A program made the position numbers. Below, one piece after another: positions 12,001 through 18,000 of a stretch of 38,431 bases of DNA. Source of the stretch: Gemmatales bacterium (GTDB lineage Bacteria > Planctomycetota > Planctomycetia > Gemmatales > HRBIN36). The stretch lies in the NCBI GenBank assembly GCA_041640595.1, contig JBEPZY010000002.1, positions 1 to 38,431 of the forward strand. The letters run 5' to 3'. Each line of letters opens with the position of its first letter. Positions within the stretch are counted from its first letter, which is position 1.

Positions 12001-15000
12001 TAGGTTGACCTTGCTTCCCCAGCCATTTGCCGGTCCTTCCGCAACCGGCGTGTTCCTTTTTGGCTGGCCAATGTAATTTTGAGAGATTGCAGAAAAAAGG
12101 CAAACTGCGGCAGCGAAATTTTCCAGCGAAATTGAGAAAGGCCTGCGCTATATTCGGAATTTTCGTCACGGCCGGAAACTCGTCCTGGCTTGCCGGGTCG
12201 GGAACGACCGCTAGAATTGGTCTCGGAAGCATGCCCGCGAAGCTGGACGCTCCCGGCCGAAGGGCATAATCCCGGTTGCGATCGGAAGGGCGTGCGATGC
12301 CGGCAAGCTTTCGTTGTCCGAACTGTCAGCAGGAGTTGTTGCTAGGCGAGACGCGGCGAGCGGAAGCGACAGTTTGTCCGCGCTGTTTTCAGGTGGTAAC
12401 GTTGCCTGCTGAGCCGGTCAGGGAAGCGGACGGAGAGAGCTTCGATTTTCTGGAAGAGGCATTGCGGCCGACCTCGCCGGAAGAGCCTGCCGCATCGCTA
12501 ACCGCTTCGCCTGCCGCAGCGTCTCAACCACAGGCCATTTTGCCACCGACGAGTGCGCCCGCGGTTGCCGATACCTTTGCCGCGACAGAATCCGGCGGAC
12601 AGACGCCATCCCCGTCGTCGAGTCCGCAGCCTCAAATTGCCGCGGGTCGGTCAGTATCCCGGGCCAGGCCAACCGTCGAGGTGCGCGCCCGGTCGGCAGG
12701 ACAACCTGAAGCTGGTCGTGAAAGCGACGCCAAGCAGCCCGCTCCTGTGGTGGCGACGTTGATCGGATGCGGGGTGCCAGCGCTGGTGCTGCTCCTGGTG
12801 CTCAGCTGGGCGGTGTGGTACGTGGTTCGTTACAGCACGGGCGAGAGCACCTCGCAGGAACATGTGCCGCCGGTCACCCGTGCTCCGCTGGAGAAGTTTT
12901 TCCAGGAGCCGGTCGCCGAACGCATCGTGCGTGAGGTAACCGAGTTATTCGAGCAGTATGTGGATGCGCTGGGAGATCTGCTCGATGCGGAGCGAGCGCC
13001 AGCCGTTCGCCAACGGCTCGGTCAAATTCTGAACAAAGCCCGTCAGCTGGAGGAGCATGTCAGGCAATTAAAACAACTGAATCAGGAGGAGTGGGTTGCG
13101 GCTAAGAATAAGTACACCGCTCGAGTGGGCGAGGGTAAGAAGCGAGTGGATCGGATTCTTGAACGGATCAAGCGGGGCGAGGCCAAACTGCCAGCAGACT
13201 CCCCCGACTGGGCCTTTATCCTGGATTGCACGGACGAGCTCGGTGCATTGCTTCAGCGAGTCGCGTCGTTGAATTTCCAGGAAACGCCGGCCGAGCGGCA
13301 GGCACGCGAATTTGTGGAAATCTACGAGCAGTACGCGGAGGCTCTCGAAAGCCTGTTTGACACCGAGCGAGCTAAGACAGCCGCCGATCAATTACGGCAG
13401 GTCAAGCGCCGGTTGCTCCAGTGGGAAAAACACATGGAAAGCCTGCATCTGGACCCCAGAGAGCATAAGGCTGCGGCAAAGAAGTACAAGGGCCGAGGCG
13501 AACAGGCTGTCCGTCGCGTGCTCGCTGCCAGCCAACGCCTGAACCGAGGTGAAGCCAAGCTCCGACCAAACTCCCCCGAAGCGCGGTCGATCCTGCAACT
13601 AGTGGACGAAATCGTCGAAATTCTGGGGCGTATCGCCACGAAATATCCTTTCTGAATGATCCTGTGCTCGCTGCAAACAAGCCCACGCCCGTTCAGCCCC
13701 GGCCCTGCACCCGGCAACACGGATTCGGTGGCATGGACGTATCCGACAGATCAGGAAGCGTTACTTGCTCGAACGCCCGCCGGCCATGCGCGGTTTCAGG
13801 TCTGATGGCGCTTAAAGTCCGGAAGCCTGGGTGAACGCACACCTTGGATGAGCCGGGGCAGGCGCAGGAGACCGAATGAACCAGAAGCGAATCCTGTTCG
13901 GAGAAGACGCTGCGCAGGTCTGACAGAACCAGGCCATCCTGTGCCGACAAAATAGCGACTTTCCCGATGCACAAACGCGTGTACAAACCAAGAGCGGGGG
14001 GCGTCAGCCCCCGTGGTTCGCTAACGCGCCTGCACCGACGATCGTGAGCATAGCGCAGGCGGTCTCCCGCGACTTTGCGGAGGCGCCCTTGCAAGTGCGA
14101 TACTCTAACCCACGGCGGGCTGACGCCCGCCGCTCTTGTTTGAGTGCGCGAACGCGTGCCGGTGAAATGGCGACTTTCGCGATGCACAAACGCATGTACA
14201 AACCAAGAGCGGGGGCGTCAGCCCCCGTGGTTCGCTAACGCGCCTGCACGGGAAATCGTGAATCCCCAGCAGACGTGCATTCGTGCAACACAAGAGCGGG
14301 GGGCGTCAGCCCCCCGTGTTCTCCCTGGACGCGAATGCACCGGCGATCGGCACACGTACCCTCGGCGGTCTGCCGTGAGTTAGTGGAAGCGCCGTTGCAA
14401 GTGCGATATTGATACCCACGGCGGGCTGACGCCCGTCGCTCTTGTCTCCGCACGTGACGAGTGTCCCCGGACGTGAGCGGTATCGGTGTTGCAAGTGCGT
14501 TTCCCAACACCCACGGCGGGCTGACGCCCGCCGCTCTTGTTTGAGTGCGCGAACGTGTGCCGGTGAAATGGCGACTTTCGCGATGCACAAACGCATGTAC
14601 AACCAAGAGCGGGGGGCGTCAGCCCCCCGTGTTCTCCCTGGACGCGAATGCACCGGTGATCGGCACACGCACCGTAGGGGGGCTGCCGTAGCTTAGTGGA
14701 AGCGCCGTTGCAAGTGCGTTTCCCAACACCCACGGCGGGCTGACGCCCGCCGCTCCTGTCTCCGCACGTGACGAGTGTCCCCGGACGTGAGCGGTATCGG
14801 TGTTGCAAGTGCGTTACCCAACACCCACGGCGGGCTGACGCCCGCCGCTCTTGTGGGAGTGCGTTTGTGCATCGCAAAAAACGTTTTTTCGCCGGCAAAC
14901 GTTCGCACCGCAACACAAGAGCGGGGGGGCGTAAGCCCCCCGTGGGTTCGCTACCATTACTGCACCGGCGTTCGTGAGCGCACCCACGGCCCTATCCCGG

Positions 15001-18000
15001 GAATTTACGACAGCGTTCCTGCAAGTGTGCTTCCCTAACGCTCACGGCGGGCTGACGCCCGCCGCTTCTGGCTGGACGTGCGTTTGTGCATCGCAAAAAT
15101 CGTTTTTTCGCCGGCAAACGTTCGTACGCCAATACAAGAGCGGGGGGCGTTAGCCCCCGTGGGTTCGCTACCACTACTGCACCGGCGTTCGTGGGCGCAC
15201 CCACGGCCCTATCCCGGGAATTTACGACAGCGTTCCTGCAAGTGTGCTTCCCTAACGCTCACGGCGGGCTGACGCCCGCCGCTCCTGTGGATGTGCGTTT
15301 GTGCATCGCAAAAATCGTTTTTCGCCGGCAAACGTTCGCACCGCAATACAAGAGCGGGGGGCGTAAGCCCCCCGTGGCTACCCTGCACGGGAGCACAACG
15401 ACTGAAAATCACAGAAAGCCGGCGTTGGTACAACAGTCGGCCCTTCGCGGCGCCGCTGGACGCGAATGCACCGAAGTTCGTGAGGACACTACCGGCGGCC
15501 TCCTGCGACTTTGCGGAACCGTTCCTGCAAGTGCGTTACCCACGCCCACGGCGGGCTGACGCCCGCCGCTCTTGTGGACGTGCGTTCGTGCATCGCAAAA
15601 ATCGTTTTTCGCCGGCAAACGTTCGCTATGCAACACCAGAGCGGGGGGCGTTAGCCCCCCGTGGTAATTATTAACGGGGAACGCAACGGCGATGCGCACA
15701 TACACCGTCGGCAGTCCGCCGAACGATCGCGCTTGTGTCTGCGCAACGAGTTTCTCGCACGCACGGCGGGCTGACAGCCGCCGCTCTTGCGAATGAGCGT
15801 TAGCCCATCGCAAAAATCGTTTTTCGCCGGCAAACGTTCGCACCGCAACACAAGAGCGGGGGGCGTTAGCCCCCCGTGGCTACCCTGCACGGGAGCACAA
15901 CGACTGAAAATCACAGAAAGCCGGCGTTGGTACAACAGTCGGCCCTTCGCGGCGCCGCTGGACGCGAATGCACCGGTGATCGGCACACGCACCCTTGGCG
16001 GTCTACCGTGAGTTAGTGGAAGCGCCGTTGCAAGTGCGTTACCCACGCCCACGGCGGGCTGACGCCCGCCGCTCTTGTCTCCGCACGTGACGAGTGTCCC
16101 CGGACGTGAGCGGTATCGGTGTTGCAAGTGCGTTTCCCAACACCCACGGCGGGCTCACGCCCGCCGCTCTCTTGTGGACGCGCGTTTGTGCATCGCAAAA
16201 ATCGTTTTTTGCCGGCAAACGTTCGCTATGCAACACAAGAGCGGGGGGCGTCAGCCCCCCGTGTGAGACAAAACGCCGTTGCAAATCGCAACCGCCCATC
16301 TCCGACGATATGCATGCGTGCAACCGGGAGCGGGGGCGTCAGCCCCCCGTGGGTTCGCTAACGCGCCTGCACCGGCGTTCGTGAGCATAGCGCAGGCGGT
16401 CTCCCGCGACTTTGCGGCAGCGTTGCTGCAAGTGCGTTTCCCAACACCCACGGCGGGCTCACGCCCGCCGCTCTTGCGAACGTGCGTTTGTGCATCGAAA
16501 AAATCGTTTTTTTGCCGACAGACGTTCGCACCGCAACACAAGAGCGGGGGGGCGTTAGCCCCCCGTGGGTTCGCTAACGCGCCTGCACCGACGATCGTGA
16601 GCATAGCGCAGGCGGTCTCCCGCGACTTTGCGGCAGCGTTGCTGCAAGTGCGTTTCCGCCACCCACCCTGTTCGGAGAAGACGCTGCGCAGGTCTGACAG
16701 AACCAGGCCATCCTGTGCCGACAAAATAGCGACTTTCGCGATGCACAAACGCATGTACAACCAAGAGCGGGGGGCGTCAGCCCCCCCGTGGTAACCCTGC
16801 ACGGGAGCACAACGACTGAAAATCACGGAAAGCCGGCGTTGGTACAACAGTCGGCCCTTTGCGGCGCCGCTGGACGCCACTGCACCGAAGTTCGTGAGGA
16901 CACTACCGGCGGCCTCCTGCGACTTTGCGGAACCGTTCCTGCAAGTGCGTTACCCACGCCCACGGCGGGCCGACGCCCGCCGCTCCTGCGAATGAGCGTT
17001 AGCCCATCGCAAAAATCGTTTTTCGCCGGCGGACCTTCGCACTGCAACACAAGAGCGGGGGGCGTTAGCCCCCCCGTGGTAACCCTGCACGGGAGCACAA
17101 CGACTGAAAATCACGGAAAGCCGGCGTTGGTACAACATTCGGCCCTTCGCGGCGCCGCTGGACGCGACTGCAACGGTGATCGGCACACGTACCGTCGGCG
17201 GTCTGCCGTGAGTTAAGGGAAGGAACATGGCGCATCGTGCGATGTCGCCTGCCGACCAACAGCCGGAGGCCGAGGCTTGTTAGAAAAAAGGAAGGAACGT
17301 GGGGCATCGTGCGATGCCGCTTGCCGACCAACAGGCTGCGCTGGCAGCGTCGGAACACAGCAGCGCAAAGCCCTCTCCAGCAGCAGGGATCTCCTCAACC
17401 GCGCTGCGCTGGCAGCGTCGGAATACGGCAGCGGGTGCCACTTGCCTGGATAACCGCCCGGCCCCATAATGTCAGCAACTGGGCAACTTTCGTTACCACC
17501 AGGGGGAAATGTCATGCGTCTAACGGGCAGCACTTTCTGGTTGGGGAGCTGTGGGGTTACTTTAGCGCTGCTGGCGACCTGCCTGGCACAGGAACCCCGC
17601 GATGCCGACAACATCATCCCGCTCACCTCTTCGATCGAGGAGTACCGCAACGCTCAAGTTTCCCTGGGCCAGGGGCAGAATGTCCAGGTGCACATTCCGT
17701 ATTGCCTGAGCGGAAGCAGTGCGCTCATTGTGTTTCCGGTCTGGTTGGTCGGTGAACAGGTGCACATCTGGGACGGAACCGACTGGAAATTACTGAATCC
17801 CCACGACGAGGTTCCGCCGCTGATAAGCGGTCAGCCGGTGCGATTGCGCTTCTTTCTGCGCAATTTGCTCAGTTCGGAGGAGGGTCGCCGAGCCGTTTAT
17901 GACTTGATCCGCAAACAGGTTGCCGAGCTGCGTGGCCTGAAGGGTGACCAACTTCGTCTGTACGAACCTCGGCTCGATAAGGAGCGGTTTCGTATGACTG

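Follow-up and report, generated by a model that had tools for sequence, protein, structure and literature searches.

An abundant REP/BIME-type DNA hairpin family in a Gemmatales bacterium, probably allied to class 3 Y1 transposase elements

BIMEs of Escherichia coli are extragenic arrays in which Y- and Z-type REPs, differing at a stem position and always placed in opposite orientation, form mosaics in which a limited repertoire of linker motifs recurs. REPINs, which go with RAYTs, consist of an inverted REP doublet that folds as one long hairpin; in the part of the published account that concerns them, they are described as intergenic and mostly vertically inherited (Bertels and Rainey 2011, PMC3116915). 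GTAG and CGTC stand for two REP superfamilies, and the relevant section of Di Nocera et al. (2013, PMC3733652) also reports untagged families, with more of them expected. Class 3 TnpA_Y1 proteins are characterised, in the section of Quentin, Siguier, Chandler and Fichant (2018, PMC6006769) that deals with them, by the signature NHxH, W[TA] and Y----Q and by a long conserved N-terminus; they come with flanking hairpins that have the 5' foot CnGA and amount to about 600 copies in one genome.

Here, we describe a 29-nt hairpin from a hot-spring planctomycete. The analysis started from a stretch of 38,431 nt, referred to as the window, and was extended to the whole genome, its relatives and metagenomes.

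Structure and arrangement of the hairpins

An exact scan of the whole genome yielded 1015 non-overlapping copies of the hairpin at up to 5 mismatches (328, 327, 142, 96, 66 and 56 copies with 0, 1, 2, 3, 4 and 5 mismatches, respectively), as against 1 match in the reversed or complemented control genome. The copies were evenly divided between the plus (508) and minus (507) strands. In an exact A-type copy (14110..14138), the hairpin is built from an 8-bp stem, a 4-nt loop and asymmetric flanks of 3 nt on the 5' side and 6 nt on the 3' side, and 663 of the 1015 stems form a perfect 8-bp Watson-Crick helix. Four stem variants were counted among the copies, namely CG/CG (517), GG/CC (204), CT/AG (165) and TC/GA (17), so that the compensatory changes noticed in the initial annotation of this DNA are real; they represent few events that were inherited by many copies. 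The position matrix of the 1015 copies contained neither a GTAG nor a CGTC terminal tag, and no GTAGGGG...CCCCTAC palindrome was detected in the genome. Among Rfam families, only a tRNA (26087-26158) reached the gathering score in the window.

Within the window, 34 matches to the 29-nt pattern were found at up to 3 mismatches, compared with 0 in 100 shuffles, and all of them were confined to two arrays, one at 13,989-17,078 and one that starts at 36,946 and runs up to the window end. With filters off, a covariance model placed 27 and 14 hairpins in these arrays and returned only one 13-bit hit from the rest of the window (Table 1). Array 1 occupies the gap between two co-directional genes and includes the span 14110-16988 to which the initial annotation had referred. 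A doublet with a spacer of the commonest class lies at 14825..14948, where the sequence folds into one long hairpin (-45.5 kcal/mol as DNA). The higher-order duplications of array 1 comprise 1.8-2.1 copies with 84-92% matches for the period of 314 and 2.7 copies with 91% matches for the period of 217. In array 2, a 100-N assembly gap begins directly after the window end.

Table 1. Features of the two hairpin arrays and their surroundings in the window
Feature	Position	Strand	Remarks
Left flanking gene, array 1	12276..13655	+	459 aa, without Pfam family
Array 1	13986..17220	.	27 hairpins, mosaic of recurring spacer modules; A-type all +, B-type all -
Example A-type hairpin	14110..14138	+	exact pattern match; DNA fold -12.4 kcal/mol
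Higher-order tandem duplications in array 1	14286..15377	.	periods 314 and 217
Example B-type hairpin	14291..14319	-	compensatory C-G to G-C stem swap; opposite to A type
A>...B< tail-to-tail doublet	14825..14948	+	61-63 nt spacer, commonest class; REPIN-like
Right flanking gene, array 1	17469..20249	+	926 aa, WD40 repeats
Array 2	36943..38431	.	14 hairpins within the window; extends to contig position 40,057, 27 hairpins in total
93-bp unit (hairpin + 64-nt spacer)	38119..38427	-	3.3 perfect tandem copies

Genome-wide, the hairpins fall into 133 clusters (gap of at most 500 bp), of which 14 are single hairpins and the largest holds 27. Together, the clusters cover 97,537 bp (97.5 kb) or 2.19% of the genome; the values given previously (922 copies in 127 clusters, 93.6 kb) convey the same picture with slightly different counting. 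The uneven spread over the contigs was likewise confirmed (C2 374, C3 229, C4 164, C1 56 and C7 0 hairpins). Distances between neighbouring hairpins lie at 80-100 bp in 592 of 1005 cases. According to the gene calls, which stem from a crude codon-usage ORF caller, 128 of the 133 clusters are situated outside genes. The arrays are enriched between convergent genes, a position held by 37 of the 129 arrays that have a called gene on both sides versus 444 of 2657 intergenic gaps genome-wide. Array orientation showed no relation to GC skew or to the direction of the flanking genes (among co-directional pairs, 36 same and 28 opposite).

The hairpins belong to two orientation classes: in 102 of the 104 arrays that have both, all A-type hairpins point one way and all B/C/D-type hairpins the opposite way. 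As the basic unit, two hairpins are joined tail to tail (A> 58-64 nt B/C/D<), and such doublets with spacers of 50-70 nt occur in 94 of the 119 clusters that have more than one hairpin. Direct A>A> neighbours are common as well (182 adjacencies). The spacers sort into few recurring homologous classes that are common to different arrays and species. Together with the position matrix, this orientation grammar bears out the earlier description of the family as REP/BIME-like with ends devoid of GTAG or CGTC tags. At 29 nt, the palindrome is also within the 20-40 nt typical of REPs. As in the BIMEs of E. coli, two hairpin types in opposed orientation and recurring linkers make up extragenic arrays, whereas the sequence is unrelated, the arrays are longer and rich in direct A>A> neighbours, and the associated enzyme would be of class 3 instead of class 2. 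Inverted doublets that fold as one long hairpin, lie in intergenic DNA and are mostly inherited vertically also correspond to REPINs, as far as the cited part of PMC3116915 portrays them; in contrast to REPINs with their RAYTs, no single-copy cognate RAYT was found here, and the doublets are concatenated into long arrays.

The regular step of 92-93 bp superficially resembles that of CRISPR integrase scars, and very large CRISPR arrays exist in this genome. It is nevertheless hardly conceivable that the hairpin arrays arose as neo-CRISPR scars left by the spacer integrase of the cell, or that they represent CRISPR-like arrays in their own right. We rejected this reading on the grounds that the hairpins occur in both orientations and that the spacers are not unique, their recurring classes being shared between arrays and species. 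In addition, the CRISPR repeats of the genome, with a length of 36-37 nt, have no sequence relationship to the hairpins.

Occurrence in relatives and the search for a transposase gene

At up to 2 mismatches, the copies numbered 797 in this genome and 26 in one congener, and 39 other relatives had none; the core pattern matched 833 times here versus 62, 50, 34, 15 and 9 times in five other genomes. None of the relatives searched comes close to the abundance seen here. An identical core of 23-25 nt, in its A-stem as well as its B-stem form, was also detected in other genera of the family, and model R1 recognised the hairpin core in 11 of 15 genomes from the family. Furthermore, the exact 29-mer is present in at least 141 metagenome stretches, some of them from relatives that are only 76-88% identical; related species carry arrays at non-orthologous loci; and spacer divergence between arrays amounts to 22% for the commonest doublet. 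These observations contradict the initial view of a very recent burst that is nearly private to the species. Since related species have their arrays at different loci, new sites were colonised after the species split.

In a sister genus (G005), a 198-aa gene is accompanied by a head-to-head hairpin pair on each side. A hairpin-bracketed Y1 gene was found in 5 of 14 homologue loci (G005, G009 twice and G014 twice); the other 9 were without R1 hairpins, and G010, with its four homologue matches, had no core hairpin. The sister-genus arrangement can be written as (x< A>) gene (x< A>), with the gene taking the slot of the 60-nt spacer seen here. The gene passes the Pfam model Y1_Tnp (27.6 and 30.4 bits versus a cut-off of 23), and an alignment of 9 sister-genus Y1 proteins revealed the motifs NHxH, WWT and Y(3-4)Q, with Y---Q spacing in G005 and G009. 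Hairpins that bracket an HUH-Y1 gene of about 200 aa with class 3 motifs, the occurrence in Planctomycetes, several hairpins per flank, the potential for hundreds of copies and an atypical make-up without GTAG all agree with class 3 TnpA_Y1 as depicted in the class 3 section of PMC6006769. The present case departs from that depiction in that the gene itself was not found here and that the foot beside the stem is not exactly CnGA: on the opposite strand, sister-genus hairpins start with CCGA beside the stem, where this genome reads CAAGAG or CAGGAG. The 3' tail of the hairpins here differs from the sister-genus tail, too. Measured against the one figure given in that section, the copy number is higher (about 1000 copies, 2.2% of a 4.4-Mb genome) and the array size (up to 27 hairpins and 3 kb) is larger. 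The idea of a new kind of REP with a mobilising agent other than a RAYT was not upheld, because the sister-genus hairpins bracket a Y1 (HUH) gene with class 3 motifs and because class 3 genes with high-copy hairpins had already been described.

We consider it likely that the 29-nt hairpins are a REP/BIME-type non-autonomous DNA hairpin family that belongs with the hairpins bracketing class 3 HUH-Y1 genes (TnpA_Y1 class 3, REPtron-like). The doublets would then be gene-less derivatives of a Y1-gene-bearing element and may have spread to about 130 intergenic sites when the Y1 enzyme cut and pasted, or copied, them as single strands, a route modelled on the IS200/IS605 and RAYT systems.

A Y1 gene bracketed by the hairpins of the family was not found in this genome. 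The Pfam model PF01797 (Y1_Tnp) gave 0 hits, tblastn detected no class 3 gene, and a profile of 9 class 3 homologues reached a best E value of 1.8 against 86,324 six-frame ORFs. No class 3 gene was found in three congeners or near the hairpins in 164 loci (561 kb) from the genus and metagenomes, and in 140 metagenome loci a search for a RayT up to 4 kb from the hairpins was likewise negative. The genome gave no hit for TnpB or IS110 and contained no protein family with at least 3 copies; Y2_Tnp (PF04986) had 0 matches, and its control likewise matched nowhere. The sole tblastn match of a 215-aa Y1 protein from a congener was spurious, lying off-frame inside a GTPase gene. The 69 ORFs enclosed by neighbouring arrays were judged by eye to be ordinary genes, for instance SurE-like, homoserine dehydrogenase-like and sigma factor genes. 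Paralogues among them were limited to an adjacent pair and weaker kin that are not transposase-like, and a 2-kb gap without gene call contained an oxidoreductase-like gene and a 72-bp tandem repeat. Because 4 of the 8 gaps in this assembly, which is 95.5% complete, touch hairpin arrays, the cognate class 3 gene may be either lost or merely unassembled. The lack of a flanked transposase gene in the same genome is shared with REP families without dedicated transposase, as treated in the relevant section of PMC3733652; unlike those families, the present hairpin has a cognate-looking gene in sister genera.

The initial statement that no Y1 transposase gene exists in this genome was inaccurate. Contig C40 ends inside a class 2 RayT-like gene, the first 80 codons of which are present. 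This gene is the sole Y1 sequence in the assembly and is 88% identical to full-length proteins of 200-207 aa named RayT, a type to which PF01797 is insensitive (no more than 15 bits for a full-length relative). C40 was recovered in two hot-spring runs, with one Logan contig reaching 69 bases beyond its end, and no names were attached to the clusters of the nearest RayT relatives. The adjoining hsdS gene is strain-variable. Within the genus, the C40-type gene is limited to the two hairpin-bearing genomes, this one and G003, as might be expected if it mobilised the hairpins in trans. We regard such a role as very improbable: the G003 and G017 orthologues contain or adjoin GTAG palindromes and not the 29-nt hairpin, no R1 hairpin lies on C40 or on contig C198 of G003, and G017, which has the gene, lacks the hairpins altogether. 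Moreover, the co-occurrence within the genus rests on four genomes of shared ancestry and is thus no test.

Growth and conservation of the arrays

Once seeded, the arrays expand and contract through local tandem duplication and through unequal recombination. Among 744 spacers, 185 have a copy of at least 98% identity in their own array and only 26 in another array. The perfect 93-bp repeats of array 2 are the product of very recent local duplication, and a block duplication distinguishes two strains whose flanks are 94-99% identical. Taken together, these findings indicate that local duplication is the main mode of growth. Strains differed in copy number only and no transposition event was seen between them, in a comparison where short-read contigs may collapse repeats. 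When filled and empty sites were compared between species, the intergenic DNA was too diverged for precise alignment and no target site or duplication was readable.

For one doublet from each of 54 arrays, diversity amounted to 0.03-0.07 in the hairpins, a value biased downward by ascertainment through pattern matching, 0.22 in the spacer and 0.5-0.6 in the outer flanks. As the hairpins are 3-7 times better conserved than the spacers travelling with them, they are probably still under constraint, be it from protein recognition or from host use. The latter would be in line with an orphan REP population, whose class 3 gene was lost in the genus and whose hairpins multiply only by recombination and slippage. 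In this scenario, which we deem possible though rather unlikely, the hairpins would be kept intact by a putative host use, for example in stabilising mRNA 3' ends, as insulators or as gyrase or nucleoid-protein sites. The scenario is favoured by the conservation of the hairpins, by recent copying that took place mostly within arrays, by the enrichment between convergent genes, by the want of TnpB, IS110 and multi-copy protein families in this genome, and by the four genus genomes, two of them hairpin-bearing, from which no class 3 gene was obtained. However, three of these four are fragmented or incomplete (78-93%) and the present one is gapped inside arrays, and the colonisation of new sites after the species split speaks against multiplication by recombination and slippage only.

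Implications for REP biology

With the affiliation to class 3 elements as the preferred reading, the family provides a natural series, in which sister genera have gene-bearing elements and few to 60 hairpins and this genus has a gene-less expansion of about 1000 copies. To our knowledge, class 3 Y1 transposases have been treated in a single paragraph of the literature, without experiments. The family is suited to test class 3 hairpin recognition, BIME-like array building and REP survival beyond the transposase. For annotation, it serves as a warning that 2% of a genome can be repeat DNA which gene callers render as family-less ORFs. More tentatively, the genus might truly have lost the class 3 gene and yet maintain, with intact hairpins, a REP population at least 10 times that of the gene-bearing sister genera. 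If so, REP arrays could prosper without a transposase of their own, driven by recombination together with host selection, or else through a non-cognate enzyme, for which the class 2 RayT of C40 would be a candidate; this would run counter to the view that REPIN populations decay after RAYT loss.

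Hairpins and the grammar of their arrays

The window contains two arrays (see table) of a 29-nt hairpin composed of a GC-rich 8-bp stem, a TNAC loop and asymmetric 3- and 6-nt flanks. The pattern of the initial annotation, allowed up to 3 mismatches, yielded 34 matches in the window versus none in 100 shuffles. A covariance model (R1) built from 26 window copies and run with filters off located the hairpins of both arrays, while the rest of the window returned one 13-bit match only. An exact, non-overlapping scan of the whole genome (4.45 Mb, 42 contigs; ≤5 mismatches) revealed 1015 copies, 328 of them exact, on the plus (508) and minus (507) strands, compared with 1 match in the reversed or complemented genome. 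They form 133 clusters of up to 27 hairpins that together cover 97.5 kb, or 2.19% of the genome. These counts lie slightly above the 922 copies, 127 clusters and 93.6 kb reported initially and bear that observation out. Stems were perfect in 663 of the 1015 copies, and nearly all perfect 8-bp-stem hairpins genome-wide belong to this family. Four stem variants, A (517), B (204), C (165) and D (17), account for 903 copies; B, C and D each depart from A on both sides of the stem.

Features of the window
Feature	Position	Remarks
Array 1	13,986-17,220	DNA without genes; 27 hairpins (covariance model) alternating with recurring spacer modules
Array 2	36,943 to window end	14 hairpins (covariance model); continues on the contig
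Two direct-repeat pairs	17219-17432	just beyond array 1; ~30-47 bp, steps of 69 and 66 bp
Tandem repeat	3827-4178	period 74-154 bp
Tandem repeat	26357-26651	period 75-150 bp; 200 bp past the tRNA gene
Tandem repeat	36003-36263	period 22-88 bp
tRNA gene	26087-26158	only Rfam match in the window
selA and selB	20411-23884	adjacent

The arrays follow a strict grammar. In 102 of 104 arrays with both classes, all A hairpins point one way and all B, C and D hairpins the opposite way. Spacing was 58–64 nt in tail-to-tail pairs (A> followed by B/C/D<, the arrowheads giving orientation) and 63–64 nt in direct A>A> pairs, while head-to-head pairs varied (56, 75, 95, 100 or 168 nt); 592 of 1005 neighbour distances fell between 80 and 100 bp. 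The 871 spacers grouped into 319 similarity classes, the biggest of which, with 100 members, is an A>...B< spacer. A tail-to-tail doublet was present in 94 of the 119 multi-hairpin clusters, and one example folded as a single long DNA hairpin (–45.5 kcal/mol). True solitary hairpins without conserved flanks exist too. Tandem repeats of ~72–74 bp, similar to the direct repeats next to array 1, also lie beside arrays on contigs C2 (~381.1 kb) and C4 (~322 kb).

By our own crude codon-usage ORF caller, 128 of the 133 clusters lie outside called genes. Arrays flanked by called genes on both sides (n = 129) occupied 69 co-directional, 37 convergent and 23 divergent gaps, compared with 1771, 444 and 442 for all intergenic gaps of the genome, and are thus enriched in convergent gaps. 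Array orientation followed neither GC skew nor gene direction. Hairpin density per 100 kb was 0–4 on contigs C1, C6 and C7 versus 22–56 on C2–C4 and C9. Set against C2–C4, C9 and C10, the hairpin-poor contigs have a G+C content of 55–57% (58–59% on the rich ones), a stronger GC skew and a slightly different tetranucleotide use (r 0.967–0.992 across groups, 0.996–0.999 within the rich group). The uneven density could stem from an effect of chromosomal domains, from scrambling through repeat-mediated inversions, or from a problem in binning.

The genes of the window are ordinary; the adjacency of selA and selB indicates that the organism probably uses selenocysteine. On C3 (314654–317883), two adjacent, repeat-rich, secreted-looking paralogues (395 and 437 aa, 89% identical) are each separated from the next by a small hairpin cluster, so that the duplication unit seems to be bounded by hairpins. 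The genome also carries very large CRISPR arrays (C1 ~359–372 kb, C8 ~3–20 kb and C10 ~65 kb), whose repeat runs number at least 247, 130 and 190 units, respectively; their two repeat types, 36–37 nt long, are unrelated to the hairpin.

Age and distribution of the family

Among 744 spacers of 50–110 nt, 185 had a relative of ≥98% identity inside their own array and only 26 in another array; the best match in another array had a median identity of 88.5%. At its end, array 2 has a 93-bp unit repeated perfectly 3.3 times, and higher-order repeats of 314 and 217 bp occur in array 1. When the commonest doublet class was sampled once per array (54 arrays), pairwise diversity was 0.065 and 0.033 in the hairpins, figures lowered by their pattern-based ascertainment, 0.22 in the spacer and 0.5–0.6 in the outer flanks. 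Spacer identities and doublet diversities therefore show that copying within arrays is very recent, that spread between arrays is not, and that the hairpin is kept more constant than the DNA travelling with it.

At ≤2 mismatches, the 29-mer occurred 797 times here, 26 times in a congener, G003 (78% complete, ~470 contigs), and in none of 39 other relatives; in the GTDB set of species representatives, only the record of this congener contained the exact pattern. Metagenomes yielded at least 141 stretches with the pattern. Among the matches listed, 128 of 140 loci align to this genome at 74–100% identity, a range indicating that the loci come partly from the same population, partly from other strains and partly from related species. 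Contigs of 76–88% identity carried hairpins where this genome has empty loci, and the converse was found as well; spacer modules are common to this genome and a related species. In strains with mostly 94–99% identical flanks, loci were filled alike with differing hairpin numbers (14 vs 4, 7 vs 5, 1 vs 6), which may include repeats collapsed in short-read contigs; one such difference was a clean block duplication.

With model R1 (150 candidates scored per genome), the same hairpin core was recognized in 11 of 15 family genomes. A 23-nt core pattern (≤1 mismatch) was counted 833 times here, 62 in G014, 50 in G003, 34 in G009, 15 in G006 and 9 in G013, and was absent from G001, G002, G010, G011 and G012. 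Alignments of the family genomes' hairpins contain both A and B stems and differ in the 3′ tail alone. The view that the element is new-born and private is thus wrong: its core is present in other family genomes, arrays exist in related species, and the spread between arrays is not very recent.

Class 3 Y1 genes and the search for a cognate gene

In G005, a genome from a sister genus, a 198-aa gene is accompanied by a head-to-head hairpin pair on each side. Of the 15 family genomes, 7 contain homologues; the 4 genomes of this genus contain none. Hairpins bracketed 5 of the 14 homologue loci returned, 4 of them in the layout (x< A>) gene (x< A>). In these sister-genus elements the gene occupies the tail-to-tail slot, which in the commonest doublet of the present genome is filled by the 60-nt spacer. 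The encoded proteins score above the Pfam Y1_Tnp cut-off, resemble solved IS200-type transposases and contain NHxH, WWT and Y(3-4)Q motifs, the signature printed for class 3 by Quentin et al. 2018 (PMC6006769). That paper places class 3 mainly in Planctomycetes and describes several atypical hairpins, which have a CnGA foot, on the flanks of its genes, with ~600 hairpin copies in one genome.

The cognate class 3 gene is missing from the present assembly. Neither tblastn with the G005 protein nor a profile of nine homologues, run against 86,324 six-frame ORFs (best E 1.8), gave a match in this genome. In 164 hairpin-surrounding loci from the genus and metagenomes (561 kb), the profile found no class 3 gene; a weak match (E 7e-5) was G003's own 215-aa protein, a general Y1 relative. 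Models of TnpB and IS110 had no match in the genome, while their controls did match, and no protein family reached 3 copies at 80% identity. Since the assembly is 95.5% complete, no contig below 2.5 kb was kept and 4 of 8 N-gaps lie in or beside arrays, loss of the gene and its non-assembly are indistinguishable.

A truncated RayT-like gene and the identity of the family

A PF01797 search of the genome found no match, and this model detects certain types of RayT only weakly. The NCBIfam RayT model gave one weak match at the extreme end of the 2.6-kb contig C40, corresponding to codons 1–80 of a gene cut by the contig end and adjoining hsdS. The initial statement that this genome lacks any Y1 gene is therefore inaccurate. 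Two proteins of 207 and 200 aa, whose HUH and tyrosine motifs are intact, share 88% and 87% identity with the fragment, and some relatives carry the source name RayT; a full-length relative of the C40 gene scored only 15 bits with PF01797. The remainder of the gene was not found in the assembly. This class 2 RayT-like gene is probably not cognate to the hairpin family, because its orthologues carry GTAG palindromes, one within the G003 gene and, in G017, one within and two just upstream, and because the 29-nt hairpins are absent from both C40 and the G003 contig with the orthologue. The GTAG palindrome itself was not found in this genome. The in-frame palindromes (G003 contig C198, L033 1285–1312; G017, L175 1794–1823), when read through, insert a short peptide behind the HUH motif. 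In a public run, contig depth dropped to 7–28 in two hsdS variable regions of C40 (L034, 400–1420), compared with 100–140 in the conserved parts, and many contigs join across these regions; several specificity variants seem to be present side by side in the community.

Di Nocera et al. 2013 (PMC3733652) already list REP families without tags and likewise families without a dedicated transposase. The initial annotation was right about the abundance of the element and its REP/BIME-type nature. The hairpins form a family of the REP/BIME type that is tied to class 3 Y1 transposases; this kind is known but has barely been studied, and this genome represents the copy-number extreme of such class 3-linked hairpin families.
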